Shown piece after piece: positions 2,891 to 50,348 of a stretch of DNA of 64,000 nt. Numbering within the stretch: position 1 is the stretch's first letter; each line of letters opens with the position of its first letter. The position numbers and the translations under genes were made by a program. The stretch comes from an uncultured Chloroflexia bacterium (lineage in GTDB: Bacteria; Chloroflexota; Dehalococcoidia; UBA2979): the NCBI GenBank assembly GCA_963728205.1, contig CAVSIV010000006.1:928001-992000 (forward strand), written 5' to 3'. Below the pieces are notes generated by a model. That model worked only from the letters and a program-made list of their open reading frames with translations, was not told the DNA's origin and made no database searches.

Positions 2891-3025
2891 GTGCCCCCCT
2901 TCCGGAGCGGTGGCCGGGATACTAGAGCCTCCCGCCGCGCGTGACCAACACGTTCGTAGTAGCCCGGAACCACGTCAGCCGCCAGAATGCGGACGGCCCC
3001 CGGCGTCGAGGAAGAGGCGGTCGGC

Positions 3026-4792: not shown

Positions 4793-6040
4793 TTAACCGC
4801 GCGGCAGCCCCAGCCCGCGCGTCGCGATGATGTTCCGCTGGATCTCCGAGGACCCCGCGGCGATCGTCGCCGGCACGGAGGTCACGTAGTCCTGCGTGAA
4901 CGACGCCCGCGCCGGCGCGTGCGGGTCGCCCGGGTCCCAGAGGTTCGAGTACAGCCCGAACAGCTTCGTGCCCGTGCGCGCCAGGCGCTGCCGCGCCTCG
5001 GAGATGAACATCTTCGCCATCGACGCCTCGTAGTTCGGGATCAGCCCGCGGTTCTGCATCGAGATGATGCGGAACGAGAAGTTCGACCCCACCTCACTCT
5101 CGACGTAGCGGTCCGCGACCTCGAGGCGCAGTGCCGTCGCCTCGCCCGACTGCCCGCCGAGCCGCGCCTTCTCCGCGCCCTCCTCGGTGCCGACGTAGTC
5201 GATCAGGCGCCGAATCGTGCGTCGCGCGGCGACCGCGCCGGAGATGTTCGAGCGCTCGAAGTCGAGCAGCGTGGCGCCGACGTACCAGCCGCGGTTCACC
5301 TCGCCGACCGCGTTCTTCGCCGGCACGCGCACGTCCTCGAAGAACGTCTCGTTGAAGCCGTGCTTCCACGCCATGTTGATCAGCGGCCGCACGCTGAGCC
5401 CCGGCGTGTGAATGTCCTCGATCACGAGGAACGTGATCCCACGGTGCTTCGGCGCGTCGGGATCGGTGCGCACGAGCGCGAACAGCGCGTCTGCGTGGTG
5501 CGCGCCCGACGTCCAGATCTTCTGCCCGTTCACCACGAAGTCGTCGCCGTCGCGGACGGCGCGCGTCTGCAGCGACGCGAGGTCCGAGCCGGCTCCCGGC
5601 TCCGAGTAGCCCTGCGCGTAGACGACCTCGCCCGACAGGATCGGCGGGAGCCACTTCTGCTTCTGCTCGTCGGTGCCGTGCACGATCAGCGTCGGCCCGA
5701 GCAGGCTGACGCCTGAGCCGCCGACGCGCGGCGCGCCGGCCGACGAGATCTCCTGGTTGAAGATGAACTGCTCCATCGGCGAGAGCCCGCCGCCGCCGTA
5801 CTCGCGCGGCCACTGCGGCGCGAACCAGCCGCGCGCCGCGAGCGCATCGCCCCAGCGCTTGGCCGCGTCGCGTCGCTCCGCGTCGTCGGACTTCCGGTCG
5901 GCGGTCCAGTCGCCGCCGCCGCCCTCTTCGACGTTGTCGCCGGCGGCGATGCGCCGGTAGTAGTCCGGCAGGTCCTGCTCGAGGACGCCGCGCACCTGCG
6001 CGCGGAAGTCGGCCTGCTCCTGCGTGTCCGCCCAATCCAT
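4793..6040 (-). CDS. Acyl-CoA dehydrogenase family protein
   Basis: QGYSEPGAGSDLASL, NGQKIWTS, FNETFFEDVRVP, TIAAGSSEIQRNII. Confidence 0.95.
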   Translation of the reverse strand: MDWADTQEQADFRAQVRGVLEQDLPDYYRRIAAGDNVEEGGGGDWTADRKSDDAERRDAAKRWGDALAARGWFAPQWPREYGGGGLSPMEQFIFNQEISSAGAPRVGGSGVSLLGPTLIVHGTDEQKQKWLPPILSGEVVYAQGYSEPGAGSDLASLQTRAVRDGDDFVVNGQKIWTSGAHHADALFALVRTDPDAPKHRGITFLVIEDIHTPGLSVRPLINMAWKHGFNETFFEDVRVPAKNAVGEVNRGWYVGATLLDFERSNISGAVAARRTIRRLIDYVGTEEGAEKARLGGQSGEATALRLEVADRYVESEVGSNFSFRIISMQNRGLIPNYEASMAKMFISEARQRLARTGTKLFGLYSNLWDPGDPHAPARASFTQDYVTSVPATIAAGSSEIQRNIIATRGLGLPRG

Positions 6041-6203
6041 CGATGCACCCCCCATGACCGTGAAACCCTGCGCAGTGACATCGCGAGTGTAATCGCTCTC
6101 CGCGAGCGTGCACCCGCGGCGCCGCGTTGACGACCCGGGCGTGCGAACGGGACGGCGAACCGGGCGCGCGGGCGCCGCTCGCCGCAGGTGGGGGCTGCAG
6201 CGC

Positions 6204-7226
6204 CTATCGCACGACGAGCACGATCGTCCCGGTGGGCACGCCCGACGGGAACGCAGCGTCGAACGTCGCGTTCACGAACGCCGGCGCGCCGGGGATCAGC
6301 ACGAGCGACCGCCCCCCGACGAACGTCGTCACCGACACGCCGCCCGCCGCCGTCACGGCCGCCGCGAGCTGCGCGACCGTGCCGCCGTTCCAGATCGCGG
6401 CGGTCACGCCGACGCTCGTGATCGCGCGGTCCAACGCCCCCACGATCCCGACGCCGGGACTCGGCGCCGTCACGGTCGGCGGGTAGAGCACGGCGAGCGC
6501 GGCGATGTCGTCCGGCTGGAGCAGGTACGGTGTCTGGCAGGCGATGTCGGTCGGCGCCATGATCGCGGTCGGGTCGAGCGAGTGGCCGACGCCGATCGTG
6601 TGCAGCAGCTCGTGCGTGATCGTGTGCTGCAGGTCGCGGTAGGTCGGGCTGCCGGGGCAGGCGAAGTCGTAGGCGTCGCTCAGGAAGACGCGCGCGGAGC
6701 GCAGGTCGCTCCATCCCGGCTGCGTCGCCGACGGCACGCCGGAGTAGACCGCGCGGCCGGTCTCGGCGATCTGGCCCCAGCCGATCACGATCGCATACGA
6801 GGTGTCCTGCGTGCAGAGCTCCGCGCGCGTCGCGGGCCCGGCGTCGACGAGCGTCAGCCCCCCGCGCAGCTCCGCGTTGATCTGCTGGATGGAGGCGTCG
6901 AACGCCTGCTGCGCGATCACGGCGCTCAGCGCTGACGCGGGTCCCGAGAGATCCGTCCCGTTCAGCACGCAGGTCCCCCCGCCCCAGGACGAGTAGAGAT
7001 CGACGCGGGTGCGGTCGACCCACTTGAAGTTCTCGAGCACATAGCCCGGGAATGGCGCGCTCGCCTCGTCCGGCGACCCGACGAGCGTGCCGGCGTGCAC
7101 CGCTTCGCCGCCGCCGAGGGTCGCCGCGGAGAGGGCGAGCAGCGCGACCGCGACGGCAATCGCGCGGCCCAGCCGCGCCGCGGTCGCGCGCGCTCGGTGC
7201 TCCCGCGGCGGCGGTCGTGACCCCAT
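6204..7226 (-). CDS. Secreted matrixin-family (metzincin) metalloprotease with C-terminal accessory domain
   Basis: Signal-peptide-like N-terminus, HELLHTIGVGH (HExxHxxGxxH) and Met-turn AIMAP. Confidence 0.85.
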   Translation of the reverse strand: MGSRPPPREHRARATAARLGRAIAVAVALLALSAATLGGGEAVHAGTLVGSPDEASAPFPGYVLENFKWVDRTRVDLYSSWGGGTCVLNGTDLSGPASALSAVIAQQAFDASIQQINAELRGGLTLVDAGPATRAELCTQDTSYAIVIGWGQIAETGRAVYSGVPSATQPGWSDLRSARVFLSDAYDFACPGSPTYRDLQHTITHELLHTIGVGHSLDPTAIMAPTDIACQTPYLLQPDDIAALAVLYPPTVTAPSPGVGIVGALDRAITSVGVTAAIWNGGTVAQLAAAVTAAGGVSVTTFVGGRSLVLIPGAPAFVNATFDAAFPSGVPTGTIVLVVR

Positions 7227-7609
7227 TGCCCCCCACCCTTCGCCCGCGGCGCGGGTCCGTCCCGCGCGTCATCGTGCGCCGCTAAGCCACGGCGCCGCCT
7301 GGCTGCCGATGGTCACGGGCCCAGCGCCGAGCACCCGACCCGTCTGGCGAGGAGTCGCCCTGATCCGGCCGCGGAGGCGCAGGGTAGCCCCCGCTCGCCG
7401 CTCGCGGGCGATGCCCCTGCCGGAGCCGGCTGATCACTGGAAGATCGCGCGGCTCGTGCTCGCGAGCATCCCGCTCACGACGCTGGTCCCTGTGTCCGGC
7501 CTTCCAAGCCCGATCGGCGCCGACGTCACCCCTGCTCACGCCTGGCGGGGCGGAGTGCAGCGGTTGACCCGTGCGAAACCGTGAAGACACGGACGGATTC
7601 GATCGGCAC

Positions 7610-7654
7610 GGGCATGCCCCGGGCCGCTCGGCCGTAAGAGCCCGGGGCATGCCC
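7610..7654. repeat. Perfect 15-bp inverted repeat (hairpin) in intergenic region
   Basis: GGGCATGCCCCGGGC-loop-GCCCGGGGCATGCCC. Confidence 0.75.
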
Positions 7655-7839
7655 ACCAGAGGGGAGCAGGCCCACGAGCGCCGACCATCGCGTGCGGAGC
7701 CCCCGGGGGACTTGCGGCGGGGCGCATAGTGTGGCTGTCGCCCGCGTCGCTGCGGCGCGCGGCGAGCGTCAGGGCCGGCGCGAGAGGCGGTCCGCGCGCG
7801 ACGGTGGTGGTCGCGATGCGGGGCCGGAGGAGGCACACG

Positions 7840-8886
7840 GTGGTCGGGACGCCACAGCCGCCCGCCGATCGGATCGCCGCGGCACGCGACGCGGTCGGCG
7901 AGCACGCGGGCGATGACTACGTGATCGCGCCCACGCAGCACGCCGCCGCGCTGAGCGGGGCCGCGCCGCAGCTGGCCGACGTGCTGCGCGGGTCCGGCCC
8001 GGAAACGGACGCCGCCGAGTACGAGCGGCTCGACGCGGACGCAATCGGCGCACAGCACGACTTCAAGCGGACGGCCGCCCGCGCCAACGGCGCGATTCTG
8101 CTGACGACGTGGCTGGGCGCTGCGGTGCTCGCCGCGAGCACGCTCGACGGCCTCCTCGGCTCGGAGGTGAGCCGAGTCGTCGCGGTGGCATGCGGTGCCG
8201 CCGGCGTGGTTGCGGGCGCACTCGGCGCGATGTGGCTGCAGCGCCTCAAGCGAGGCGAGTTGTTCAATCGCTGGATGCGCGCGCGCGCCCGCGCCGAGGC
8301 GCAGCGGGTGCGGTACTTCGAGCGAGTCGTCTCGGCCCCCGACCCCGGCGGCGGGTCGCCGCCGCTTCCGCTGCTCCAGCTCGAGTACGTGCGTCGCTAC
8401 CTGCTCGACGTCGAGCTCGCCTTCTACCGTCGTCGCGGCGCAGACCACCGGCGCGGAGCCGACCGCTCGCTCCGGCTGGAGGGCATCGCGCTCGTGCTCG
8501 CGACCGTCGGCACGGGCATCGGCGCGTTGCTCGTCGCCGCCGCGGGCGCCGAGCTCGCCGCCGCCAGCGCCCTGGGGATCGCCGGCGCGGCGCTCGCCGG
8601 CTTCGCGCAGAGCCGCGAGGCAGTGACGCAGGACGCGCGCAACGCCGAGCGCTACGAACGCACGCGGGAGGCACTGGTCGCGGTCCGCGAGCGGCTCGAC
8701 GCCGTCCGCGCCGCCGCCGCCGTCGGCGACGCCGACCCGGTACGGCACTTCTTCGAGAGCGTGGTCGAGCAGGTCTCGGTCGAGCACCGCCAGTGGCTCG
8801 ATGCTGCCGAGCAGGCGCGCGGCGCGATCGGCCGGCTCGAGGAGGCGCTCGAGCGCAGCCGCGCCGCGACCGCGCCAAACTCATAG
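7840..8886 (+). CDS. DUF4231/SLATT-like tandem 2x2-TM membrane protein
   Basis: Two hydrophobic hairpins, each followed by a helical motif (RWMRARARAEAQR; VEQVSVEHRQW). GGAGG RBS before GTG 7840. Confidence 0.65.
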   Translation: MVGTPQPPADRIAAARDAVGEHAGDDYVIAPTQHAAALSGAAPQLADVLRGSGPETDAAEYERLDADAIGAQHDFKRTAARANGAILLTTWLGAAVLAASTLDGLLGSEVSRVVAVACGAAGVVAGALGAMWLQRLKRGELFNRWMRARARAEAQRVRYFERVVSAPDPGGGSPPLPLLQLEYVRRYLLDVELAFYRRRGADHRRGADRSLRLEGIALVLATVGTGIGALLVAAAGAELAAASALGIAGAALAGFAQSREAVTQDARNAERYERTREALVAVRERLDAVRAAAAVGDADPVRHFFESVVEQVSVEHRQWLDAAEQARGAIGRLEEALERSRAATAPNS

Positions 8887-8926
8887 CAGCATCCGTCACG
8901 CCCGGGCCGGGCGAGGAGATCCAACC

Positions 8927-10132
8927 GTGTCCTTCCCCCGCCGGGTGCGCGGCAGCGGGTCCGCATCCACGGCACCGTTCCGCATCGTCGCGCGCGCCCC
9001 CGGGCCGTCGTGGCCGCGTCGCGCGGGGCGGACGGTCGTCTTCGTGCTCGGCGTGCTGATCTTCCTGGCGGGGCTGCTCCTCGCGGTCCCGACACTGCTC
9101 CTGCTGATCGTGCTCCCGCTTGCGACGTTCGCAGGCGACGGGACGTCGCCGGGCGACTGGCTCTGGCTCGCCGGCCTCGGTCCGGGTGCGATCCTGCTGC
9201 TGTTCCTCGGGCTGCGGCTCGTGCGCGCCCGCCGGTACCTCGTCGTCTTCCTGCGCCGGTTCGGCTTCAACGACGCGTCGGCGGCGCTGACCTTCGCGGT
9301 GGGCGGCGCGCTGGGCCGGCGCTGGCGGCTGGTGACGCTCGACGACTCGCGGATCGAAGCGGTGGGCGTGGGCCGCGGCACGCGCCTCACGTGGGGCGCC
9401 GGGCAATGGCTGTCGCTGCTCGCGCTGGCGATCGTCGTCGCGCTCGTGCTGCGCTGGTGGTTCGGCGGCGGGCCGGAAGGCATCGTCGGCGGCATCTGGG
9501 ACGGCCTGTACACGGGCGCCGAGGAGAACGGCTCGAACCCGCTCGAGGCGGCGTTCGTCGCCTTCATCGGCACGCTGGTCGTCGGCCTCGTCGTGCTGTC
9601 GCTGATCGTGGGGCTGCTCGCGGCCGCGATCTCCGCGCTCGGCGTCGCGTCGCTCGCGTCGTGGCGGGCGAACCGAGCCGTGCACCGGGCCGAACGCGCG
9701 AAGGCGCTCAACGTCGACGACGCGTCCGCGGTGGCCGGCGCGGTGGACCGCGTGCTCGCGCGCTCGCGCGGCATCCAGGCCCCGCGGCTCGTGGTGCTCC
9801 GCGTCGCCGACGCCTGCTGGCGCGACGTCGTGCGCGCACTCGCCGAGGAAGCGGACGTCGCGATCGTCGACGTCTCGGACCCCACGGAGCACCTCGCGTG
9901 GGAGGTTGCGACGCTGCAGTCGCCGGGCGTGCGCGCGCGGCCGCTGATGATCGGCCGGCGCGATCGCGTCGAGGCGCTGGCGGCGGTCGAGGCGGCCGGC
10001 GGCGGCGCGGCGGCGCGTCTGCGGGAGCAGCTGCGGGGCGAGACGGTGCTGGTCTACGACGACATCCTCGAACGGGGGGCGCTGCGCCGGTTCGCGCGGG
10101 CGCTGGCCGGTGCGCTGGAGCGGACGCCGTAG
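8927..10132 (+). CDS. Membrane protein with putative TIR/NDT-like alpha/beta domain
   Basis: About 4 TM segments. VVFLRRF and WRDVVRALAEEADVAIVDVSDPTEHLAWEV motifs. GAGGAG RBS before GTG 8927. Domain call is inference. Confidence 0.55.
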   Translation: MSFPRRVRGSGSASTAPFRIVARAPGPSWPRRAGRTVVFVLGVLIFLAGLLLAVPTLLLLIVLPLATFAGDGTSPGDWLWLAGLGPGAILLLFLGLRLVRARRYLVVFLRRFGFNDASAALTFAVGGALGRRWRLVTLDDSRIEAVGVGRGTRLTWGAGQWLSLLALAIVVALVLRWWFGGGPEGIVGGIWDGLYTGAEENGSNPLEAAFVAFIGTLVVGLVVLSLIVGLLAAAISALGVASLASWRANRAVHRAERAKALNVDDASAVAGAVDRVLARSRGIQAPRLVVLRVADACWRDVVRALAEEADVAIVDVSDPTEHLAWEVATLQSPGVRARPLMIGRRDRVEALAAVEAAGGGAAARLREQLRGETVLVYDDILERGALRRFARALAGALERTP

Positions 10133-10349
10133 CGCGTGCCGCGCGAGCCCGTTCGACGGCCGCAGTACTCGGACTCCCTGCTCGGCGCGGCGCGGGCGCG
10201 CGACCAGCGTCGCCGGGCGCGAATGTCGTGACTCGCCCGCGCACCTCGGCCTCACGGCGCGGCAGGCCGGGTCGGCAACAGTCCCCGTCGGACCGGAGCG
10301 TCGCAACGGCGGGGGCGCGATTCCCCGCACCTGCATATGATCCGCCGCA

Positions 10350-11114
10350 GTGACGCGAAACCGACAGACGGCCGACGGCACGTTCTCAGGATGTCCGAGC
10401 TGGACCAGACGCAGGGACCCGCCGCGCCTCGCCAGCCGCTTCGTGCACTGCTGGCTGCTGAATCTCGACCTTGATGCCGCGCCGCTGCACGAGTCGTACG
10501 CGTTGCTGTCCTCGGACGAACAGCGTCGAGCGGAGTCGTTCCTGGTTCCACGTGACCTGGAGCGCTACATCGCGGGACGAGGATGGCTACGCCGCATGAT
10601 GGCCCGATACCTCGGGTGCTCAGCCAGCGACGTCGCGCTGCGGGTCGGTCCGCATGGCAAGCCGGAGCTCGCGGCGCCGGGACAGAGCCTCCAGTTCAAC
10701 GTGGCCCACTCGGGACCGCTACTCCTGGCGGCATTTGGCCGCGGCCCCGGCCTCGGAGTGGACATCGAACGCATGCCCGAAGCCTGGCCCCTGGAGGGAC
10801 TCGATGCCGGGGTGCTGTCCCCCGCCGAGATGCAGGTGCTCGCGCAGGCATCCCCCCGGGATCGACAGGATCAGTTCCTCGCGTACTGGGTCCGCAAGGA
10901 GGCTGTGCTGAAGGCGGAGGGCTCCGGGATGATGGTGTATCCGCCGAGCGCCGTATCCGTGGTGCCGGCAGGCGCGTCGCCATCGATCACGGTCCGCTGC
11001 GGCGATGCCCTGTACACGGTGGTCGACATCTCGATCGATGAGGAGTACCGGGGAGCGCTCGCGATTGCGTCTCCGGGGCGGGCACCGTGGGTGCGTTGCT
11101 ACCGGTTCGGCTAA
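10350..11114 (+). CDS. Sfp-type 4'-phosphopantetheinyl transferase
   Basis: GPHGKP, FNVAHSG, LGVDIE, WVRKEAVLKAEG. Convergent with the NRPS. Confidence 0.93.
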   Translation: MTRNRQTADGTFSGCPSWTRRRDPPRLASRFVHCWLLNLDLDAAPLHESYALLSSDEQRRAESFLVPRDLERYIAGRGWLRRMMARYLGCSASDVALRVGPHGKPELAAPGQSLQFNVAHSGPLLLAAFGRGPGLGVDIERMPEAWPLEGLDAGVLSPAEMQVLAQASPRDRQDQFLAYWVRKEAVLKAEGSGMMVYPPSAVSVVPAGASPSITVRCGDALYTVVDISIDEEYRGALAIASPGRAPWVRCYRFG

Positions 11115-14100
11115 ACGCGCCGCGCCGCAGCGCCCGGCAGCGGGCCGGAGCGGCCCTCCAGCACCTCGTCGATGCAGCGTCGAAGCTCCGCGGCGAGCAT
11201 GCGCACGTTCGGCTCGGTGAGCATGTTCGCGTGCGACGCAGGGATGCGCCTGACATCGAGCCCGTCCGTCGCGAAGTCCTGCCATCGCATGCGGGGATCG
11301 CCGTCCAACCCACCATCGCCGTAGTCTTCGTCGCCCCAGAAGAGCGTGACCCGACCCCGGAACGGGCCCGGGCGGTAGGTCGCGACGGCCTGCAAGGAGA
11401 GGCTGCCGGCCGCGGCCGGCCGCGCCCTCGGCGACTGTGGCCGCAGTCGTGACCGCCAGTACCGAACACGCTTTGCGACGTAGTCGACCTTGCCCGTGAA
11501 GCTGCGCCTCCTCAGGGCGACGACGTGTCGTCGCAGCGTCGGTCTGAATCCGCGCAGCGCCGCCGGGCAATTCGTGTCGAGGAGCGCCACGAGGCCGAGT
11601 TGCCTCCCAGTGGCTTGGAGCACGCGAGCGACCTCGAAGGCGACTACGCCGCCCGTCGAGTGACCCACGACGAAACAGGGGCCGGCGGGCTGGAACCTAC
11701 AGATTTCCTCGGCTGCCTCGCGGGCCATCTCCGGGATGCCGGCGTCCCGCGCATCGCCCGGTCGCGGCGCTCGGTGAAGGAGCAGGTAGGACGGCTGATC
11801 CGGACCGAGGTGCCGTGCCAGGTGGCGGTAATTCAGGCCGTACCGGTCGGCGGAGTGCATGAAGTAGATCGGCGGCCGCTCTCCGAATGGCTGCATCGCG
11901 ACGAGCCTCTGCTCCCGGCTGACGACGCCGGCCTCGATGACGCCGGCCAGCCGCTCGATCGTTCCGGCTTCGAACAGGGCGCTGATCGGAAGGCGCACGC
12001 CGAACGCCTGCTCGATCTCCCAGAACAGCCGCGCGGCCAGGAGCGAGTGCCCTCCCAGCGCAAAGAAGTCCGCGGTGACGCTGACGGAGTCGATCGAAAG
12101 CACCCTCTGCCAGATCTCGGCGAGACGCCGCTCGGCATCGGTCCGCGGCCCCACGCACTCCGTGCCGTCCGGGCGGGTCGTGTTCGACGCCGGCAGTGCC
12201 CCCCGGTCGACCTTGCCGTTCGGGCTCAGGGGCAGCGATGCGAGCCAGACGATACGCGCGGGGATCATGTACGCGGGAAGCCGTTGCGCGAGAAACCGCC
12301 GCAGCGTTTCCGTGGAGGGCCTCCGGTCGCCCCGCTCCGAGACGTACGCCACCAGCGAGCGGTTCCCGAGGCCATCCGCCTCGGCAACCACCGCGCAATC
12401 GCCGACGCCATCGCACTCCGCGAGCGTGGCCTCAATCTCGCCGGGCTCGACCCTGAATCCGCGCACTTTGACCTGATTATCGCGGCGGCCGACGAACTCG
12501 AGACTGCCGTCGGGAAGGAAGCGGACGATGTCGCCGGTACGGTACAGCACGCCGCCGCTCTCACCGGCGAATGGGTTCCGCACGAACCGCTCGGCGCTCA
12601 ACTCCGGGCGCGCCAGGTATCCGAGCGCAACGCCTTCACCGCCGATGTAGAGCTCCCCGCGAACGCCCGGCGGAACCGGCTGCATCCGAACGTCGAGCAC
12701 GTACACGGTGGTGCGCGAGATGGGCCGCCCGATGGGGATGGTGTGTGCGCCCGCCGGGACTTCCGTCACCTCATGCGAGGTGGCGAAGGTAGTGGTCTCC
12801 GTCGGGCCGTAGACGTGCAGCAACCTGGCGGGAGGACCTGCCCTCAGGACCTCGCGAACCGACCGCACGTCGGCGGACTCGCCGCCGAACAGCACAACCC
12901 GGAGCGTGCGAAAGGCATCGGGACGTGCGCTCGCAACCAGGTTGAACAGTGCCGTCGTCAGGAACATCACGGTCACGCCGTGTCTCACGACGTGCTCCGC
13001 AAGTGCGCTCGCGGACAGGATCGTGTCCTGAGACGGGATCACGACCATGGCTCCGTTCAGGAGCGCGCCCCAGATCTCGAATGTCGCTGCGTCGAACGAA
13101 GGATTGGAGACATGCGCAACTCGATCGGACTCGACGACCTGGCAGAAGTCGGCGTGGACGACGAGTCGTAGCACGCCACGTTGCGGAACCAGCACGCCTT
13201 TCGGCTTCCCGGTCGAACCAGACGTGTACATCACGTACGCGGGGTCGTCCGGGCTTCCCGCGGTCCCGGGGTTCGAAGCGGGTTGAGCGTCGATCGCCGC
13301 GTCGGCGTCGAGCCGCACGCAGGTTGCGGGTCGAGACGGCAACGACGCGCGGTGTGCGCTCGTGGTCAGCACGACCGACGGCGCTGCTTCATCGACGATG
13401 AACGCGAGGCGCTCGGCGGGATAGCCGGGGTCGAGCGGAACATATGCAGCTCCGAGCTTGATGACGGCCACGAGTGCAACGAGCATGTCGATGGACCGGT
13501 CCATGCACACCCCGACGGTGGACTGTCTCGAAACGCCCAGCGACCGGAGGTAGTGCGCGACCTGGTTCGCGCGCGCGTTCAGGGCGCCATATGTGAGCTC
13601 GCGCGCGCCATCCGACACCGCGATCCTCGCGGGGCCGGCGCTCACCTGCTGCTCGAAGCGCTGCGCCAGCGTCCCGGCGAGGGACGGCGCGGAGTCCGCG
13701 CCGCTCCAGTCGTCCAGGATCTGGCGCCGCTCGCTCGTGGAGAGGATCGGTGCATCCGCGACGGGCAGATCTGGGCCGGCGGCAACCGCGGCGAGCAGTG
13801 CAGCGTAGTGGGCCATCAGGCGCCGGATCGTCTCGGGATCGTACAGGTCCGCGTTGTACTCGAACTCGACGCGCGTGAGCGGGAACCCTTCGGCGGGCCG
13901 CGTAGCATCGCCGCCTGCTCGCCGCGGGGTGACGATGACGTTGATGTCGAACTTCGCGGAGTAGTTGTCCGGGTAGTCAAGCGCCACCTCGAGACCGTGC
14001 AGGTCGAGCCGCGGCAAGTGCGCGTCGTGGGAGCTGAACGCGACGTTGAATAGCGGATTGCGACTGAGGTCGCGATCGGGGTGAAGCTCGGCAACGAGCC

Positions 14101-16939
14101 TCTCGAACGGCAGATCCTGGTGCTCCGCTGCGTCGAGCACAGTTGCTCGGGCGCGGCGCAGCAGTTCTCGGAAGGTGGGGTTGCCGGCGCTGCTCGTACG
14201 GAGAACGACCGTGTTCACGAGCGGCCCGATCAGGCCCTGGACCTGCGGCCCCGTACGGTTCCCGAAGCCCGAGCCCAGCACGATGTCTTCGATCCCGCTG
14301 TATCGAGTCATGATCGCCACGAAGCCCGCGAGGAGCGCGGTGAACAGCGTGGCGTCCTCTTCGCGCGCGAGCGCGTGGAGCCTCGCCTCGAGCTCGACCG
14401 GCAGCTCGAGGATGAGTCGGGCGCCGGCGAACCCCTGGGTGGGCGGCCGCGGCCGGTCCGTCGGCACTTCCAGTACCGGAGGCTGTCCCGACAGCCGGTC
14501 CTTCCAGTGCTCGATCTCCTGCTCGAGGACGGCACCGCGCAAGCGATCGCGTTGCCAGGCGGCGAAGTCGACGAACTGCAGTTCGGGCTCCGGGAGCGGG
14601 GAAGGCTCACCACGGCATGACGCGTTGTACAGCGCCCGCAGCTCACCGAGTTCGACCGCCAGGGACCATCCGTCGTGGACGAGATGATGCTCGACTTGGA
14701 CGAGGATGTGATCGTCGGCGTGGAGCCGCAGCAGCTTCCAGCGAATCAGCGGCAGCTCCCATGGATTGAAGATCTGCTGGCATTCCTCGCGGACCAGCCG
14801 ATCAGCCTCGCTCTCCCGGTACGCCGACGGAACGTCGTCGATCGTCTCGACCGGGAGCGAAACGCGATCGGGGGCGTGCACGACCTGGACAGGGCGCCCG
14901 TCGGTCGCCGGGAACGTCGTCCGGTAGATCTCATGGCGCCGCACGAGCTCACCGAGCGCGTCCTCGAGCGCGTGCACGTTGAGCTTCCCGCGAAGCCTCA
15001 GCGTGAACTGGAAGTTGTACGCGAGGCTCCAGGGGCTCAGCTGGTGCAGATGCCAGATCGTCTCCTGGACGAAGGACGTCGGCAGCGCCTCATTCCGTGG
15101 GGCGCGTGGAATCGCGTGGTTCCGCACGCGCGGACCATCCGCCGCGCGTGCGTCGATCTCGCGCGCCAGCCTCGCGATCGTCGGCCGATCGAACACCGTG
15201 CGGACGGAGAGGTCCACGCCGAAGCGCTCCCGTACCTCACTGGCGAGTTGCGCGGCGAGCAGAGAGTGTCCGCCCAGGTCGAAGAAGCTCACATGGATGC
15301 CGGGATCGCGCACGTTGAGCAGGCGACACCAGAGGCGCGAGAGCGCGACCTCAGTCGGCGTTCCCGGTCGCAGATCGTCGGCCGGCGCCCGCCCCTGGGC
15401 CATCCCCGGAGGGGGCAGCGCGGCGAAGTCCACCTTTCCGCCTCCAGTACGGGGGAGCATCGGGACCGGGATGAGTTGCGAAGGCACGAGGTACGACGGA
15501 TGGGATGCTCGAAGGTCCCTCGTCACTGCCTCAGCATCGAAGGACGCGGGGTCCGCGACTACGTAGGCAACGAGGCTGCGATAGCCGGCGTCGGTTTCGA
15601 GCGATGTGACCGCCGCCCCCGCAAGGGATGGGTGACGCACGAGCGCTGCCTCAACCTCGCCGAGCTCGACGCGGAAACCCCGGATCTTCACCTGCCTGTC
15701 GAGACGCCCGAGAAACTCGAGCGCCCCGTCCGGACGCGTCCGCACGAGGTCCCCGGTGCGGTAGAGGCGAGGGCTGGCCCCCGCGGAGCCAAAGGGGTTC
15801 GCGATGAACCGCTGCGCCGTCAGCTCCGGTTGCCCGAGGTAGCCGAGCGCGAGCGTCGGCCCTCCCACCAGCAGCTCGCCCGGTCGCTCGTCGGCCACTG
15901 CGTTGCCGAACTCGTCCACAATGTGGACCACCACTCCCGGCAGCGGGAAGCCAATCGGAACCGGGGCCGCCAAGGGCTCCGGCCGGCACGACCAGCTGGT
16001 AACGTCGACGCAGGTCTCCGTCGGGCCGTAGCAGTTGATGAGCGCGGCCGAACTCGACTCGAAGAAGGCGGAGACGACATCCGAGGCAAGCGTGTCCCCG
16101 CCGCACACCACTCGCCTGAGGCTCGTGATTGCCCTCCAGGACGGGTCGGCGATCATGGAACGCAGCATCGCCGGCACCGTGTCCAGGACCGTCACTGCCC
16201 TCGCGGCGATCAGACTGTTCAGATAGGCCGCGTCCCGTTCCCCACCCGGCTCGGCGATGACGACGCGCGCACCGACCGTGAGTGGTCCGAAGACCTCGGC
16301 GATCGACGCGTCAAAGCTCGTCGAGTACTTGTGCAGCACACGGTCGTTGTCATCCAGGGGGTGTCGCTGTTGCGCCATGCGCAGATGCGCCACCACGGAG
16401 GACTGCGGAACCATCACACCCTTGGGCGCGCCCGTTGAGCCCGACGTGTAGATCACGTATGCCAGCGAATCGGGACGCGTGGGGGATCCGGGCGGCTCGT
16501 CCGTCTCGGCGGCGATCTGATCGCCGTGCTCGTCCAGGACGACGAGAGTCGTTGAGCGCGGCACGTCCGGACGCGCGGAGCCGGTCAGAACGAACGGGGC
16601 CGCCGTTTCGCGGACGATATGTGCGAGCCGGTCGGCGGGCTCGGATGGGTCGCAGGGCACGTACGCGCCCCCGGCCTTGAGGATCCCGAGGAGAGATACC
16701 ACCGACCCGATCGATCGTTCGACGGCGTGGACGATGCACGTGTCCGGCGCGACGCCCAGTCTCTGCAGATAGCGAGCCAGGCGATTCGCCCGAGTGTCGA
16801 GCTCGCGGTACGAAAGAGTGATGCCGGCCGACTCAACGGCGACGGCCTCGGGGGTGCGGGCTGCCTGCTCCGCCACCAGCTGATGAAGCGTCGGCATCTG
16901 GGCGACCCCGGCGTCGATGTGGGACGCGAACTCCCACAT
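11111..16939 (-). CDS. Two-module NRPS A-T-C-A-T-TE
   Basis: Two A domains (YTSGSTGxPKG, YGPTE, YRTGD), two T domains (FFxLGGHSLL), C domain EHHLVHDGWS, TE GHSTGG. Start 16939 or 16897. Confidence 0.95.
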   Translation of the reverse strand: MWEFASHIDAGVAQMPTLHQLVAEQAARTPEAVAVESAGITLSYRELDTRANRLARYLQRLGVAPDTCIVHAVERSIGSVVSLLGILKAGGAYVPCDPSEPADRLAHIVRETAAPFVLTGSARPDVPRSTTLVVLDEHGDQIAAETDEPPGSPTRPDSLAYVIYTSGSTGAPKGVMVPQSSVVAHLRMAQQRHPLDDNDRVLHKYSTSFDASIAEVFGPLTVGARVVIAEPGGERDAAYLNSLIAARAVTVLDTVPAMLRSMIADPSWRAITSLRRVVCGGDTLASDVVSAFFESSSAALINCYGPTETCVDVTSWSCRPEPLAAPVPIGFPLPGVVVHIVDEFGNAVADERPGELLVGGPTLALGYLGQPELTAQRFIANPFGSAGASPRLYRTGDLVRTRPDGALEFLGRLDRQVKIRGFRVELGEVEAALVRHPSLAGAAVTSLETDAGYRSLVAYVVADPASFDAEAVTRDLRASHPSYLVPSQLIPVPMLPRTGGGKVDFAALPPPGMAQGRAPADDLRPGTPTEVALSRLWCRLLNVRDPGIHVSFFDLGGHSLLAAQLASEVRERFGVDLSVRTVFDRPTIARLAREIDARAADGPRVRNHAIPRAPRNEALPTSFVQETIWHLHQLSPWSLAYNFQFTLRLRGKLNVHALEDALGELVRRHEIYRTTFPATDGRPVQVVHAPDRVSLPVETIDDVPSAYRESEADRLVREECQQIFNPWELPLIRWKLLRLHADDHILVQVEHHLVHDGWSLAVELGELRALYNASCRGEPSPLPEPELQFVDFAAWQRDRLRGAVLEQEIEHWKDRLSGQPPVLEVPTDRPRPPTQGFAGARLILELPVELEARLHALAREEDATLFTALLAGFVAIMTRYSGIEDIVLGSGFGNRTGPQVQGLIGPLVNTVVLRTSSAGNPTFRELLRRARATVLDAAEHQDLPFERLVAELHPDRDLSRNPLFNVAFSSHDAHLPRLDLHGLEVALDYPDNYSAKFDINVIVTPRRAGGDATRPAEGFPLTRVEFEYNADLYDPETIRRLMAHYAALLAAVAAGPDLPVADAPILSTSERRQILDDWSGADSAPSLAGTLAQRFEQQVSAGPARIAVSDGARELTYGALNARANQVAHYLRSLGVSRQSTVGVCMDRSIDMLVALVAVIKLGAAYVPLDPGYPAERLAFIVDEAAPSVVLTTSAHRASLPSRPATCVRLDADAAIDAQPASNPGTAGSPDDPAYVMYTSGSTGKPKGVLVPQRGVLRLVVHADFCQVVESDRVAHVSNPSFDAATFEIWGALLNGAMVVIPSQDTILSASALAEHVVRHGVTVMFLTTALFNLVASARPDAFRTLRVVLFGGESADVRSVREVLRAGPPARLLHVYGPTETTTFATSHEVTEVPAGAHTIPIGRPISRTTVYVLDVRMQPVPPGVRGELYIGGEGVALGYLARPELSAERFVRNPFAGESGGVLYRTGDIVRFLPDGSLEFVGRRDNQVKVRGFRVEPGEIEATLAECDGVGDCAVVAEADGLGNRSLVAYVSERGDRRPSTETLRRFLAQRLPAYMIPARIVWLASLPLSPNGKVDRGALPASNTTRPDGTECVGPRTDAERRLAEIWQRVLSIDSVSVTADFFALGGHSLLAARLFWEIEQAFGVRLPISALFEAGTIERLAGVIEAGVVSREQRLVAMQPFGERPPIYFMHSADRYGLNYRHLARHLGPDQPSYLLLHRAPRPGDARDAGIPEMAREAAEEICRFQPAGPCFVVGHSTGGVVAFEVARVLQATGRQLGLVALLDTNCPAALRGFRPTLRRHVVALRRRSFTGKVDYVAKRVRYWRSRLRPQSPRARPAAAGSLSLQAVATYRPGPFRGRVTLFWGDEDYGDGGLDGDPRMRWQDFATDGLDVRRIPASHANMLTEPNVRMLAAELRRCIDEVLEGRSGPLPGAAARRV

Positions 16940-17303
16940 GCTTGCGAACTCCCACCGCGGCAGACCGGTCCGGTGGCCTGCGGCGTGGCGTCGAGGATGC
17001 ACGCTGCTGCCACGGCGCACGCCGGCGGACGCCGCTCACCTTCATCGCGGTTCGCCTGGCGACCCTCGGGCGGGCGACCCAGCGCGATGTCTGCGCCACG
17101 AACCCGGTCACGACATCTTGCGCATCGCAACCGGCCACGGATGCCTGATCGGCTGTGCCGCCGCTGCGGCTCGCGGTCGGCATCGTGGCGCGAACCTAGG
17201 TCCGTCGCGGTTAATCGACGGTTACGGGGTAGGCGTCCCTACAGCGCCGGGACCCATCACGCCGTGCGACCTGCCTGCGTCGGTGCGGCCAGGCGGCGCG
17301 CAG

Positions 17304-17351
17304 TCTCCCTGCACCCTCGGGCCCCCAGGCGACCCCGAGGGTGCAGGGAGA
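17304..17351. repeat. Perfect 18-bp inverted repeat; possible terminator or island boundary
   Basis: TCTCCCTGCACCCTCGGG-12 nt-CCCGAGGGTGCAGGGAGA. Confidence 0.75.
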
Positions 17352-17440
17352 GCGCACTCGCTCGCGAAGACTCATTTCGTCCGACCGAAGAGCCTCGCGG
17401 CAGCGGCCGCACGTTCGTCAAGCCGCGGCCGCGGCGCGCC

Positions 17441-17797
17441 CTACCCGCGAATGAGCTTGAGCAGCGTCCGGGACGCGATCGTGGCGGCCGCGGACGCGAA
17501 GCTGATGCCGGCGAGCGTGATCGCCGTCTGGTCGTACACCGGGTGCACGCGCACGCCGTCCGGCGAGACCTCGACGACCGCCACGCCGCGCGCCTTGCCG
17601 CCCGCGCCGCCCCCGCCGCCGGAGCCGGCGCCCTCGTCGTCGCCGCCGCCGCCCCAGCCGAGGCCGACCCCGTAGGCGACCTCGGCCACGGGGATCACGG
17701 TGCGGTCGCCACTGGAGACCGGCTGGCCGAAGCAGTGCCCGGCACTGGTCCGCTCCGGGACCTGGGCGAGCTCTTTCATGGCCTCGGCGGCGTCCAT
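17441..17797 (-). CDS. GerW/YtfJ-like family protein
   Basis: FGQPVSSGDRTVIPVAEVAYGVGLGWGGG...GGGGGAGG...VAVVEV pattern. Confidence 0.8.
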   Translation of the reverse strand: MDAAEAMKELAQVPERTSAGHCFGQPVSSGDRTVIPVAEVAYGVGLGWGGGGDDEGAGSGGGGGAGGKARGVAVVEVSPDGVRVHPVYDQTAITLAGISFASAAATIASRTLLKLIRG

Positions 17798-17850
17798 CCG
17801 GGGTCTCCGTTCCTGCGAGCGAGCGTCCGCGAGCGGCGGCTCGCCGTCGT

Positions 17851-18198
17851 TCATGCGGACTCCAGCGTAGCGCGCCGCGACGACCGCCGCCGACCGAGCC
17901 ACCACCCGACCGCGAGCGACGCGCCCCAGAGCGCGAGCGTCCGCCGCACGGCCCGCGTCCGCGGATCCGGCACGCGCGGGATCGCGACCTCGTACCGCCG
18001 CCCCGCCTCCGTCACCTCGACGGCCACCGGCCGCACCCGGCCCAGCGTCAGCGCGAAGCCGGTGCCGCGCCCCGCGCCGACGCGCAGGCGACGGTGCTCG
18101 ACGCGCCCGCGCAGCGCGCGGTCACCGAACTGGCCGAGGTCGACGTGCTCGACCTCGGTCGTCAGCAGCGCACCCAGGCCACCGGGCATCGCGGGCAT
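17851..18198 (-). CDS. Hypothetical protein with C-terminal TM segment
   Basis: Fills the gap in a co-oriented operon. RPVAVEV motif and hydrophobic tail. Confidence 0.6.
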   Translation of the reverse strand: MPAMPGGLGALLTTEVEHVDLGQFGDRALRGRVEHRRLRVGAGRGTGFALTLGRVRPVAVEVTEAGRRYEVAIPRVPDPRTRAVRRTLALWGASLAVGWWLGRRRSSRRATLESA

Positions 18199-18235
18199 CA
18201 GCGGGCGGCCGCGGGGGCCGGCGCCGCCGCGCGCA

Positions 18236-18952
18236 CTAGAGGTCCTTCTGGCGGAAGACCCATACCGACGCGAACACCGCGGCGGCGGTCAGCGCGGGGA
18301 ACACGAGCATCACGCGGAAGACGTCCCAGCCCGAGACGTCGCCGCGGAACGTTGCCGGCAGCGCCTCGATCACGGCGGTGGTGCTCATCCACGTCAGCCC
18401 CAGGAACTGGAGCACGACGCCCGACAGCACGACCACGAGCAGCACGGCCAGCACGGCCATCAGCACGTTGGTCATCACGGTCGACATCGAGAGCCCGAAG
18501 GCCGCGAGGAAGGTGAGCAGCGCGCCCACCATGAGGATGCCGGCCAGCACGCCGCCGAACGACGTATCGGACGCGGCGTACCGCACGACGAGGTAGGCGA
18601 ACGGGATGATCACCACGAAGTAGACGGCGACGGTGAACCCGACGCGCGCAACGATCTTCGCGGAGATGTACTCGGTGCGCGTCACCGACCGCGACATGAT
18701 CGAGTCGGCGATGATGCCCGACTCGCCGTTGATCGCGCTGCTGGAGAGCACCGCCACGGCGAGCGCCGACAGCGGCGCGAGGACGGCCGCGATGTACGCG
18801 CCCATCGTCTCCGACGCGAGCTCGTTCTGGCTCGCTGCGACGGCGACCAGGAACAGCGCGGGACCAACGAGCAGCGGGATCCAGACGCGAGCGACCCAGG
18901 AGCGGGTCAGCTGCGTGAGGTCATACCGCAGGATGGCCAGGAATGCTTGCAT
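18236..18952 (-). CDS. ABC-2 type transporter permease
   Basis: About 6 TM helices, SRSVTRTEYISAK loop. Downstream of the ABC ATPase. Confidence 0.85.
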   Translation of the reverse strand: MQAFLAILRYDLTQLTRSWVARVWIPLLVGPALFLVAVAASQNELASETMGAYIAAVLAPLSALAVAVLSSSAINGESGIIADSIMSRSVTRTEYISAKIVARVGFTVAVYFVVIIPFAYLVVRYAASDTSFGGVLAGILMVGALLTFLAAFGLSMSTVMTNVLMAVLAVLLVVVLSGVVLQFLGLTWMSTTAVIEALPATFRGDVSGWDVFRVMLVFPALTAAAVFASVWVFRQKDL

Positions 18953-19988
18953 CCGTCGTCTCCGATTCGATGGTGCCGTTTGAGCCGCCGCGCTTGGCGA
19001 TGTCCTGCGTCGCGGCCCATGCGGCGGCGCGCAGGAAGCCGCGCGTGCGGTCCTCCTCCAGGCGCCGCAGGAAGGCCTCCTCGATCTCGTCCGCGCCGGT
19101 GTTGATGTGGAGGAGCTCCACGCCGGTGCGGTCGACAAGCTGGAGGACGCGCTCGATGTACTCGGGGAGCGGCTCGGTGCCGAGGAACGTGATGCGGAAC
19201 TCGGAGCCGAGGCGCTCGTAGCGCACGGAGCCGAGCTCGTCGAGCGTCGGGATCTGCTGCTCGAACGCCGCGGTGTTGCCTTCGATCTCCACCGCGATCG
19301 TGCCCTGGCGCGCCAGCCGCCGCATCTCCGCCATCGGCCCCGAGTAGATCTGGCGGCCGCTGGAGATGATGCCGACGTCGGTGCAGACGCGCTCGACGTC
19401 GCCCAGGATGTGCGTCGCGATGATGATCGTGCGGTCCCGGCCGGAGAGCTCGCGGATCAGCTCGATGGTCTGCTTGCGGCCCGCCGGGTCGAGACCCGAC
19501 GTCGGCTCGTCGAGGATCAGCAGCTCCGGGTCGTTCATCAGCGCCGCGGCGATGCCGAGGCGCGTGAGCATGCCGGTGGAGTAGCTGCCGATGCGCTGCG
19601 AGGCGGCGTTCGTGAGGTCGACCGCCTGCAGCAGCCGCGCCAGCTGGATCTTCGCGCGGTCCCCCGGCAGCCCGAGGACGGCGCCGACGAACTGCAGGTA
19701 CGAGATCGCCGTCATGTGCTTGGGGAAGTTCGGGTTGGTCGGCAGGAAGCCGATGCGGCGCCGGATGTCGGCGCGCTCGGCCGTCATCGGCTCGCCCAGC
19801 ACCGAGACCGTGCCCGCGGTCGGCCGCTGCAGGCCGAGCAGGATGCGGAAGGTGGTGGACTTGCCGGCGCCGTTCGGACCGACGAGCCCGAACACCGAGC
19901 CCTTCTCGACGCGCAGGTTCAGCGCGTTGAGGGCGATGTAGCGGTTCTCGTAGATCTTCGTGAGGTCCGACGTGAGTACGACGTGCAT
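18921..19988 (-). CDS. ABC transporter ATP-binding protein
   Basis: GPNGAGKST, YSTGM signature, LILDEPTSGLDP, H-loop. Confidence 0.95.
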   Translation of the reverse strand: MHVVLTSDLTKIYENRYIALNALNLRVEKGSVFGLVGPNGAGKSTTFRILLGLQRPTAGTVSVLGEPMTAERADIRRRIGFLPTNPNFPKHMTAISYLQFVGAVLGLPGDRAKIQLARLLQAVDLTNAASQRIGSYSTGMLTRLGIAAALMNDPELLILDEPTSGLDPAGRKQTIELIRELSGRDRTIIIATHILGDVERVCTDVGIISSGRQIYSGPMAEMRRLARQGTIAVEIEGNTAAFEQQIPTLDELGSVRYERLGSEFRITFLGTEPLPEYIERVLQLVDRTGVELLHINTGADEIEEAFLRRLEEDRTRGFLRAAAWAATQDIAKRGGSNGTIESETTDASIPGHPAV

Positions 19989-20231
19989 CGTGGGCACCTC
20001 CTGGGGGTCGCCCGCTTCCATGCGCGACGGCCGGCCCGGCGTCCCGCCCGGATCGACTAGCGGTGAGCGGGCATCATATCCGGCGCCCCCAAGACACGAA
20101 AGGCGGGGTTCCCCCGATTCCGGTGCGCGCCGCCGTGCCGCCGCCGGCGAACGGCCCGCGTCAGCGCGCTGAGCGGTCGCGCATGGCGGAGTGCCTCGTC
20201 GCCGGCGCCGGCGACGCCGCCCCGCACCCGC

Positions 20232-20657
20232 CTACGGCAACACCACGACCGCGTGCCCGGGACACGTCGCCTCGCCCGCCTGGTTGAACACATTCACGTC
20301 CAGGTAGACCCGACGCTCGCCCTCCTCCTCGCGCTTGTCGGTGACCGTCCCGCGCACCGTCAGCACGTCGTGCTTCTGGTTGATCGCGCGGTACTGGCAG
20401 CCCACCTCGCGGATCTCGGCCTCGTCGCCAATCCAGTCCTGCAGCGCGTTCACGATGTACGCGTAGCGCAGGTTCCCCATGCCGAACGCCCCTTGCTCGT
20501 TGAGCGCGGCGCGGCCGGCCTCGTCGTCCATGTGGATGTAAACGAACTCGTCGTTCACCGCGGCGTAGCGGTTCCAGTTCATGAAGTCGGTCTCGCGCGA
20601 CCACTCGGGCAGCGCGTCGCCGACGGTGACGGCGTCGAAGGTGACGTTCGTGGACAT
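20232..20657 (-). CDS. MaoC-family dehydratase (catalytic-type subunit)
   Basis: YAAVNDEFVYIHMD hydratase motif; hot-dog fold pattern. Confidence 0.85.
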   Translation of the reverse strand: MSTNVTFDAVTVGDALPEWSRETDFMNWNRYAAVNDEFVYIHMDDEAGRAALNEQGAFGMGNLRYAYIVNALQDWIGDEAEIREVGCQYRAINQKHDVLTVRGTVTDKREEEGERRVYLDVNVFNQAGEATCPGHAVVVLP

Positions 20658-20698
20658 CGGTGACCTCCTGAGGCGCGACGCTGCGCGCCACTGCGCGA

Positions 20699-21196
20699 CT
20701 AGTAGCGGATGCCGGTCTGCACGCGGCGCTTCGCGAGCTCGCCGCGCTGGTTGCGCCACTCCGTCTCGTTGCGCGAGAAGAGCGTCAGGCCGAGCCGCGT
20801 CTCGCGCTCGTCCCAGTCCATCAACCGGCTGCGCGCGGTGACCACGTCGCCGGGCCGCATCGGCGCGCCGTAGGTGTCGACCTGCCCGCCGTTCATCCCG
20901 CGCGTGCCCGGACCGCCGCCCCGCGGCGTCGCGCGCTCCGGCCGGATCTCACGCTCGACCGGCCACGCGAACGGGTTGAAATCGCGCGGCGCGATGATGC
21001 CGCCCCAGCGTGTCGACGCCGCGTACTCGGCGTCCCAGTAGATCCGCGACGGTCGCTCCGGCCAGTACACCGCGATCGCCCACTTGCGGATGTCCGACTC
21101 GCTGATGGGCGGCGCCACGCGCTCCGGTCCCCACACGCCCTTCTGCTGCAGCATGTCGTCGGTGACGAGCGTCTGCGGTTGTGACTCCGTCGTCAC
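20699..21196 (-). CDS. MaoC dehydratase N-terminal/FAS1-like domain protein
   Basis: DIRKWAIAV...IYWD...WGGIIAP...MNGG...PGDVV. Confidence 0.85.
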   Translation of the reverse strand: MTTESQPQTLVTDDMLQQKGVWGPERVAPPISESDIRKWAIAVYWPERPSRIYWDAEYAASTRWGGIIAPRDFNPFAWPVEREIRPERATPRGGGPGTRGMNGGQVDTYGAPMRPGDVVTARSRLMDWDERETRLGLTLFSRNETEWRNQRGELAKRRVQTGIRY

Positions 21197-21335
21197 GGCT
21201 GTCCCCCTCCACACGAACGTGATGACGCGCAGATGGTACGGCGCGGGGGGAAGCGCCTGCGCCGTCGATGGCAGGCGCCCGCACAGGCGCCCGCTACGAC
21301 TCGTGCCCGTAACGTGCGACACCTATAGTGCGGCC

Positions 21336-30660: not shown

Positions 30661-30683
30661 CAGCGTTGCGCGACGCGATGCCG

Positions 30684-32153: not shown

Positions 32154-32202
32154 CGCGCGTCTCCTCTGATCTGTGCCGTCATCGCGCCTCGCTCGCCTGC
32201 AC

Positions 32203-33693: not shown

Positions 33694-33714
33694 CGCTCCC
33701 TCTCGTCGCTCTCG

Positions 33715-49403: not shown

Positions 49404-50348
<945 letters not shown>

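Follow-up and report, generated by a model that had tools for sequence, protein, structure and literature searches.

We analysed a window of 64,000 nucleotides (positions 928,001 to 992,000 of contig CAVSIV010000006.1, assembly GCA_963728205.1) from the genome of an uncultured bacterium and describe here a two-gene cassette within it, comprising a bimodular nonribosomal peptide synthetase (NRPS) gene and an adjoining gene for an Sfp-type 4'-phosphopantetheinyl transferase (PPTase). The NRPS has the domain order adenylation (A), carrier (T), condensation (C), A, T and thioesterase (TE), and its only C domain carries the active-site signature of the C domains that form ureido bonds (Curea) and groups with them in phylogenetic trees. 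We read the two genes as a divergent, probably acquired member of a recurrent and uncharacterised class of minimal Curea-TE synthetases, in which the C domain would link two amino acids through a urea carbonyl and the TE would release the product. This is not a categorically new system and the lineage that carries it is one in which NRPSs are rare.

Domain architecture and the Curea-type condensation domain

The open frame of the NRPS spans 11111..17020 on the minus strand without interruption. The coordinates below use the ATG at 16939, which is the start of the 1942-aa database form by which residues are numbered here (P0036; P0001 is another numbering of the same NRPS), and an alternative start is the ATG at 16897.

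11111..16939, minus strand: bimodular NRPS gene, A-T-Curea-A-T-TE, 1942 aa from ATG 16939
15275..16921, minus strand: loading adenylation domain A1, limits from hidden Markov models (HMMs), code DAAAVGCVDK
15155..15352, minus strand: carrier domain T1, LGGHSL, Ser559 of P0036
13703..15106, minus strand: Curea-type condensation domain, from Pfam, HMM and trees
14669..14692, minus strand: active-site octet EHHLVHDG, then W and S; E750, H752 and H755 of P0036
12056..13729, minus strand: adenylation domain A2, HMM limits, code DAFALGVTFK
11933..12133, minus strand: carrier domain T2, LGGHSL, Ser1632 of P0036
11141..11884, minus strand: type I thioesterase domain, GHSTG, Ser1761 of P0036
10350..11114, plus strand: Sfp-type 4'-phosphopantetheinyl transferase, Pfam ACPS and AASDHPPT_N

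Pfam identifies two AMP-binding stretches, two AMP-binding_C, two PP-binding, one Condensation (P0001 residues 645-1102, E 2.6e-90) and one Thioesterase domain (P0001 residues 1717-1935, E 1.2e-17) in the NRPS, and HMMs built for this analysis give the order A-T-C-A-T-TE with the C domain directly after the loading A-T didomain. The core motifs are intact, with A3, A7, A8 and A10 present twice each, LGGHSL with its serine in both carrier domains and GHSTG in the TE. The PPTase gene is convergent with that of the NRPS, the two frames overlapping by 4 nt, and its product matches ACPS at 45.7 bits (cut-off 25) and AASDHPPT_N at 37.8 bits (cut-off 27); because these domains begin at residue 49 the true start probably lies downstream of 10350. 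It contains GVDIE and WVRKEAVLK, which we take to be the metal-binding and W/KEA motifs of Sfp-type enzymes, and with 121 bits against the NCBIfam HetI model (cut-off 370) it is therefore no HetI equivalog. The preliminary description of this locus, made from the sequence alone, had thus correctly reported a single A-T-C-A-T-TE gene with its own Sfp-type PPTase. It had also called the NRPS stand-alone, and for most potential partners this stands, as in the genome (89% complete) the C domain is the only Condensation-family match and neither a second NRPS nor an MbtH-like gene was found; a Lant_dehydr_N (PEARL-like) gene was likewise not found in the genome, an absence that is weak given that the control for this family matched nowhere.

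The C domain reads EHHLVHDGWS at P0036 residues 750-759 and the octet EHHLVHDG (residues 750-757) maps exactly to the position at which it had been approximately placed. Its recognition as a ureido-forming signature is likewise borne out by the literature, where EHHXXHDG, in place of xHHxxxDG, is published as the mark of Curea domains (Yu & van der Donk 2024, PMC11212132). According to that study none of the MIBiG C domains of other function has the motif, and the usual place of a Curea domain is directly behind a loading A-T didomain. The A-T-C-A-T enzyme SnaA, which yields ureido di-arginine in vitro, has the same eight residues (E744-HH-LV-H749-DG), and both E744A and H749A brought its product down to the detection limit (PMC11212132). 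Of 297 ordinary C domains, taken from those database proteins that resemble the NRPS most, none has E at the first motif position and none has H at the sixth, and the DNA pattern of the motif read backwards had no match in control scans of 5 and of 401 genomes. The octet in this C domain is more than chance. Five alignment columns separate Curea from ordinary domains and the NRPS C domain has the Curea state in four of them.

In order to place the C domain we assembled three reference sets. The first comprised 10 motif-bearing domains among 119 other proteins from a protein search with the C region, in which multi-module NRPSs prevailed (their bit scores add up over several domains) and which also supplied comparison domains; the second came from Nostoc sp. 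CCCryo 231-06, Pseudomonas fuscovaginae SE-1, Jidongwangia harbinensis and three metagenome-assembled genomes (MAGs), and the third from a motif scan of JGI metagenome contigs. The Nostoc strain has two tandem A-T-Curea-A-T-E genes (E, epimerisation) with codes that fit a basic or aromatic first residue and Lys as the second, which is the arrangement given for aptA1/aptA2 in a review of anabaenopeptins (PMC8402340). In P. fuscovaginae SE-1 the motif is matched once, within an A-T-Curea-A-T-...-A-T gene with a Thr-like code in its second A domain; pppA is so arranged and this species is named as a carrier of the cluster (pseudovibriamide preprint).

In a FastTree phylogeny of 301 C domains the 10 motif-bearing domains form an exclusive clade with a Shimodaira-Hasegawa (SH)-like support of 0.992, in a tree of 315 domains 17 of the 18 motif-bearing domains do so (SH-like 0.994), and in a tree of 94 Curea and 20 random ordinary domains all Curea domains form one clade (SH-like 1.0). 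An IQ-TREE analysis (LG+G4, with the SH approximate likelihood ratio test, SH-aLRT) of 36 Curea and 40 ordinary domains, including the 25 ordinary domains closest to that of the NRPS, again recovers all 36 as one clade (SH-aLRT 78.5). Within it the NRPS C domain lies in a 29-member subclade (SH-aLRT 99.5) with every TE-type domain, the two Nostoc anabaenopeptin-like domains and the P. fuscovaginae ppp-like domain. With one exception in the 315-domain tree the motif-bearing domains hold together in the four trees, and the grouping is of Curea type rather than with the ordinary domains that join two L-residues (LCL), in agreement with the first assignment of this domain. A tblastn search of plasmids with the C domain and with its 120-aa core gave matches below 49% identity only and no named ureido cluster; a match on a Nostoc punctiforme plasmid was considered as an apt cluster and ruled out, as it is a polyketide synthase (PKS)-NRPS. 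A search of genome contigs had the motif in 5 of the 80 loci returned, most of which came from a generic second pattern.

The substrate codes were read by hand at what we take to be the Stachelhaus positions. The A1 code, DAAAVGCVDK, places an acidic residue at the pocket base, a feature that resembles the canonical codes for amino acids with basic or amide side groups, and its substrate may accordingly be basic or polar. A2 has the code DAFALGVTFK, found also in locus L254, and is predicted to select a hydrophobic, Val/Ile/Leu-like amino acid. Control codes were as expected, with Thr-like DFWSVGMVHK in the ppp-like A2 and Lys-like DTEAIGSVVK in the apt-like A2 of the Nostoc strain (L099).

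A number of observations speak against a ureido-forming synthetase and should be set beside this evidence. The Curea references were assigned by record titles, architecture and literature and are not experimentally characterised sequences, and the authors of the signature themselves say that only limited current examples back it as "sufficient and necessary" (PMC11212132). In the 315-domain tree the ppp-like Curea domain falls outside the clade on a long branch, and support for the whole Curea clade in IQ-TREE is moderate. The NRPS C domain has a median identity of 44.6% to Curea versus 43.0% to ordinary LCL domains (maximum 48.5%, with 48.9% to the best Curea domain), and at the fifth Curea-enriched column it has D where 15 of 17 Curea domains have N, so that in terms of sequence the signal between the two kinds of domain is shallow. 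The MbtH-like partner that SnaA requires (PMC11212132) had no counterpart among the matches found in this genome, which is 89% complete. For the substrates, A-domain codes are weak predictors and substrate prediction tools failed for SnaA (PMC11212132).

Alternatively, the C domain might be an ordinary LCL domain in which E and H arose by chance, and the product would be a linear dipeptide or a diketopiperazine, as with other small A-T-C-A-T-TE/R synthetases. In favour of this, Curea domains are a shallow branch within LCL, the best identities to the two kinds are nearly equal, the clade support is 78.5 and the set of characterised examples behind the motif rule is limited. The sequence matches of the C domain in the PDB are ordinary C domains, and one entry there (8z0q) bears the title "Special condensation domain in NRPS". 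We nevertheless regard this as unlikely, since the E or H of the motif occurs in 0/297 ordinary domains, the C domain lies inside the strongly supported subclade with the apt-like and ppp-like domains, and mutation of either residue in SnaA nearly ends ureido formation (PMC11212132).

Recurrence of thioesterase-terminated Curea bimodules

A TE straight after the ureido module had been thought exceptional, and a search for homologs of the same architecture overturns this. Scanning JGI metagenome contigs for the DNA pattern of the motif gave at least 117 stretches; all metagenomic counts that follow are among the matches listed. Of the 117 stretches listed, 101 contained the motif in the frame of an open reading frame (ORF) 200 aa or longer (16 were dropped), and 54 of the 101 could be evaluated past module 2, the other 47 being cut off or too short. 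Twenty-nine of these 54 end after T2, 12 continue with a C domain and 13 have the A-T-TE ending of the NRPS. Four of the 13 are complete A-T-C-A-T-TE ORFs of 1940-2131 aa (L168, L196, L247 and L261), in which Pfam identifies two A, one C, two T and one TE domain, and the layout is thus not unique to the NRPS described here.

The TE-type loci resemble the NRPS in other respects. A homologue of its adjacent PPTase lies in the short flanks of five of the 13 (and of three non-TE loci), and the A2 code fits DA[FL]xLGxTFK in 11 of them. Identity between the NRPS and the metagenomic TE-type genes is 36-43%. In the C-domain tree these genes fall into at least six groups, from which we conclude that the layout arose or was reshuffled several times, and the NRPS stands apart from all of them with L230, L171 and L178, which have other or unknown endings, as its neighbours. 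The closest relatives by the T2-TE region are 30-40% identical and only one of 119 has the motif, in a protein without TE, so that the TE does not by itself mark a Curea-TE family. The literature searched, which omits most subscription journals, yielded nothing on bimodules in which a TE ends a Curea synthetase. In the order of Jidongwangia, represented by 401 actinobacterial genomes, 12 genomes carry the motif with 13 matches, most of which are A-T-Curea-A-T genes followed by a second NRPS gene; one of the 13 is the near-variant A-T-Curea-A-T-C-TE and another has a dissociated T-Curea protein.

Several loci have layouts of their own. At L149:7288-14388 (G811) an A-T-Curea-A-T-C-TE gene has a partnerless second C-like domain between T2 and TE, and no other NRPS gene was found beside it in the 19 kb inspected. 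L148 (G736) encodes a 610-aa T-Curea protein (EHHFLHDGWS) beside separate A-T and A proteins, a dissociated layout reminiscent of the free-standing ureido machinery reported for pacidamycins. A Micromonosporaceae MAG (L031:1439-8896) joins A-T-Curea-A-T and a Lant_dehydr_N (PEARL-like) domain within a single ORF, which amounts to SnaA and SnaE in fused form. Eight TE-terminated genes (L186, L190, L191, L196, L236, L246, L247 and L261) make up one group of the C-domain tree, and several of them have two TE-HMM matches in ORFs of 2049-2131 aa, which suggests that the TE in this group is insertion-bearing or tandem.

Predicted product and genomic setting

For the NRPS described here we propose the following sequence of events. 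The Sfp-type PPTase would convert T1 and T2 to their holo forms, A1 would load the first amino acid onto T1 and A2 would load a hydrophobic, Val/Ile/Leu-like amino acid onto T2. The Curea domain would join both alpha-amino groups head to head via a carbonyl derived from bicarbonate/CO2, as in SylC and SnaA, after which residue 1 would have a free carboxylate and residue 2 would remain as the T2 thioester; such chain reversal at the ureido bond has been described (PMC11212132). As there is no further module the TE must release the product, and it would do so by hydrolysis to give a free N,N'-carbonyl-linked Xaa1-CO-Xaa2. Alternatively the ureido nitrogen would attack the thioester to form a hydantoin. 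We consider this and the open diacid equally plausible; among ureido peptides, the hydantoanabaenopeptins and the imidazolidinyl-dione pseudovibriamides (pseudovibriamide preprint) are known examples of hydantoin forms. Taken together, Curea chemistry followed by direct TE release appears to us reasonably probable.

A ureido dipeptidyl intermediate might instead be passed to another acceptor or be tailored by enzymes encoded elsewhere, for example by TE transfer to an amine or polyamine, by a PEARL-like ligase at the free carboxylate or by the neighbouring acyl-CoA dehydrogenase. There is precedent in the sna pathway, in which both ends of the ureido unit are extended and an enzyme of acyl-CoA dehydrogenase type modifies the unit (PMC11212132), and in L031, which fuses Lant_dehydr_N to the Curea bimodule; in addition the genome is 89% complete and an acyl-CoA dehydrogenase gene lies at 4793-6055 of the window. 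The acyl-CoA dehydrogenase genes at 4793-6055 and 48052-49425 belong, however, to a very large paralogue family in the lineage, the former having dozens of DNA matches of 65-85% per genome in five relatives (G001-G004 and G024), and its adjacency to the NRPS is therefore likely chance. With no PKS, second NRPS, MbtH or Lant_dehydr_N match in the genome (the last with a silent control), an ABC transporter that is kept in relatives without the NRPS, and a fused TE that argues for direct release, we find such a fate distinctly unlikely.

The source is a draft genome of 4.13 Mb and 72.5% GC in 6 contigs, 89% complete with 5.6% estimated contamination, and the window is part of a 1.87-Mb contig. 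Core genes farther out in the window encode valyl-tRNA synthetase, SecA, phosphoribosyl pyrophosphate synthetase, nuoL/M/N-like subunits and glutamine synthetases. The best named relatives of SecA are 70-81% identical and come from MAGs labelled Dehalococcoidia or Chloroflexi/Chloroflexota, by which the host, a soil bacterium, looks like a member of Chloroflexota of the Dehalococcoidia class. The preliminary description knew of no NRPSs in this lineage, which broadly holds: 24 of 400 sampled Dehalococcoidia-class genomes have a Condensation-family match (E <= 1e-10), four of them strong, and most matches in these 24 genomes are stand-alone proteins of about 470 aa. In the 29 loci inspected among the Condensation-family matches of the 400 genomes the Curea motif did not occur.

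A protein search with the C domain found nothing in three same-genus and 16 same-class genomes and a single weak match (29% identity) among 21 same-family genomes. At the DNA level the flanks are matched in the five relatives at 72-85%, but window positions ~7100-8970 and ~10064-17440 are not, the listed exceptions in these gaps being two weak hits of adenylation type in a single genome and one match of 39 nt. The NRPS has a GC content at third codon positions of 0.84 and the PPTase one of 0.80, compared with 0.89-0.95 for neighbouring genes. On account of this absence in relatives, the lower third-position GC and the rarity of C domains in the class, the two-gene cassette was probably acquired horizontally. 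The best relative is ~49% identical for the C domain and 43% for the whole protein, which is too distant to point to a donor. In all three congeners the S15-peptidase gene (window 2963-4726) adjoins the MaoC genes (window 20232-21322), and in two of them the ABC block adjoins a regulator (window 21084-22010); gene order differs and the region has therefore been rearranged as well as expanded (window 2963-4726 and 17454-22010 compared with G001:C147, G001:C8, G003:C66 and G003:C147).

The only NRPS-like trace found in the family is in the same-family relative G004, where a 560-aa stand-alone condensation-like ORF with FHHLVLDGRS lies at G004:C58:107508-108839 and an adenylation-like gene on G004:C112 has 66-69% DNA identity to A2.

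A recently acquired cassette could be a silent or decaying passenger with no product in its host, and its singleton status in the lineage together with the convergent orientation of the two genes, which form no single operon, would fit this; we consider it quite improbable given an uninterrupted frame of 1942 codons and intact core motifs in the A, T, C and TE domains as well as both PPTase motifs. That the locus is an assembly chimera or a binning contaminant is very improbable, for although the genome is a draft with the estimated contamination given above and a gene order different from its congeners, the locus lies inside the 1.87-Mb contig among core genes, both flanks match congeners at 78-85% identity, and short contigs from two soil metagenome runs, maybe of the source sample, cover the NRPS and flanks without mismatch. 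The short contigs of these two DNA runs bridge no junction of the island, and no RNA run carrying the locus was found among the sequencing runs listed.

The neighbours of the NRPS and PPTase are, on one side, the acyl-CoA dehydrogenase (4793-6055), a Peptidase_M10-like protein and two membrane proteins without clear family and, on the other, a YtfJ-like protein, the ABC transporter and MaoC-type dehydratases; no PKS was found among neighbouring genes. The M10-like peptidase gene (6204-7226) was considered as a target or partner and dropped, since parts of it match in relatives without the NRPS, and the upstream ABC transporter, conserved in such relatives, is not specific to the cluster. The two membrane protein genes lie between the M10-like peptidase and the PPTase (window 7585-10132, plus strand). 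That at 7585-8886 (plus strand) matches SLATT_1 weakly, below the threshold, lacks any DNA match in the five relatives and may be a second inserted element, while the other (8627/8801-10132, plus strand) has no Pfam family and 72% DNA matches elsewhere in two congeners.

Three further features of the window were recorded. A luciferase-like monooxygenase is encoded at 759-2285. An H+-pyrophosphatase ORF at 26251-27696 (plus strand) covers profile positions 201-645 only and is overlapped upstream by a frame in another phase (25622-26500), so that a frameshift, whether genuine or introduced during assembly, appears to divide the gene (25622-27696, plus strand). At 30384-38000 the AT skew is strongly positive (0.17-0.20) and GC is lower where minus-strand genes encode the nuoL/M/N-like membrane subunits, which is an ordinary compositional effect of hydrophobic proteins.

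Implications and comparison with known systems

It is possible, if short of probable, that TE-terminated Curea bimodules, often with their own PPTase, are widespread and unstudied mobile two-gene cassettes of soil bacteria whose products are free ureido dipeptides or 3,5-disubstituted hydantoins. Among the matches listed, roughly one in four evaluable Curea loci ends in a TE, so that this product class may have been overlooked. If this is true, two genes would suffice for a urea-linked dipeptide, a scaffold which to our knowledge is present in known natural products only within larger molecules (anabaenopeptins, antipain-type inhibitors, syringolin and pacidamycins), and the products, hydrophobic throughout at their second residue, would form a new family of secreted small molecules, perhaps inhibitors of metallopeptidases or carboxypeptidases or signals. 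The cassette would be about the smallest system for CO2/bicarbonate capture and reversal of chain polarity by a C domain, and it is an easy target for heterologous expression. Dehalococcoidia-class genomes seldom have NRPS genes; this locus, seemingly acquired with its own PPTase included, would be the first such cassette seen in a genome of the class.

Among characterised enzymes SnaA of Stackebrandtia nassauensis (threopeptin) is similarly A-T-C-A-T, with EHHLVHDG followed by W-S and the Curea domain after the loading didomain, and needs both of its T domains (PMC11212132). This comparison is one of published octet and architecture. Unlike the NRPS, SnaA has no TE, hands its ureido unit to the PKS SnaB and is accompanied by an MbtH-like protein and a PEARL-like ligase (PMC11212132). 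The set that defines a sna-type cluster, a ketosynthase-acyltransferase-carrier PKS, MbtH, a stand-alone TE and a PEARL-like ligase, was not found with the NRPS, which has a single C domain.

AptA/ApnA (PMC8402340; represented by L099 of Nostoc sp. CCCryo 231-06) share A-T-Curea-A-T, EHHxVHDG and the 29-member subclade with the NRPS. The Apt system differs in its epimerisation domain, four further modules, Lys as residue 2 and a cyclic hexapeptide product, whereas in the NRPS the TE follows directly after T2 and the genome has a single C-family domain, which sets it apart from anabaenopeptin-type systems. PppA (pseudovibriamides) and ChmA (chitinimides) likewise begin with an A-T loading unit and a ureido-forming C domain, the P. 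fuscovaginae ppp-like domain carrying EHHFVHDG and being the most divergent Curea domain in our trees, but these belong to heptamodular assembly lines in which residue 2 is Thr or dehydrobutyrine. SylC of syringolin A likewise connects two amino acids by a ureido bond made from bicarbonate/CO2 (cited in PMC11212132). It differs in that one adenylation and condensation unit serves both residues in the syringolin system (hydantoanabaenopeptin paper) and in that the ureido unit becomes part of a larger NRPS-PKS product.

With respect to size the nearest parallel is the AusA type (A-T-C-A-T-R, R being a reductase; aureusimines), which is similarly a minimal two-module enzyme with its own PPTase (AusB) and differs in its reductase end and pyrazinone products. 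The NCBIfam AusA model NF047350 is among the best full-length matches of the NRPS at 1047 bits, far below its cut-off of 2500, and we know of no report that AusA carries the Curea motif. The same domain order and motif as in the NRPS are seen in the metagenomic genes L168, L196, L247 and L261 together with nine partial genes.

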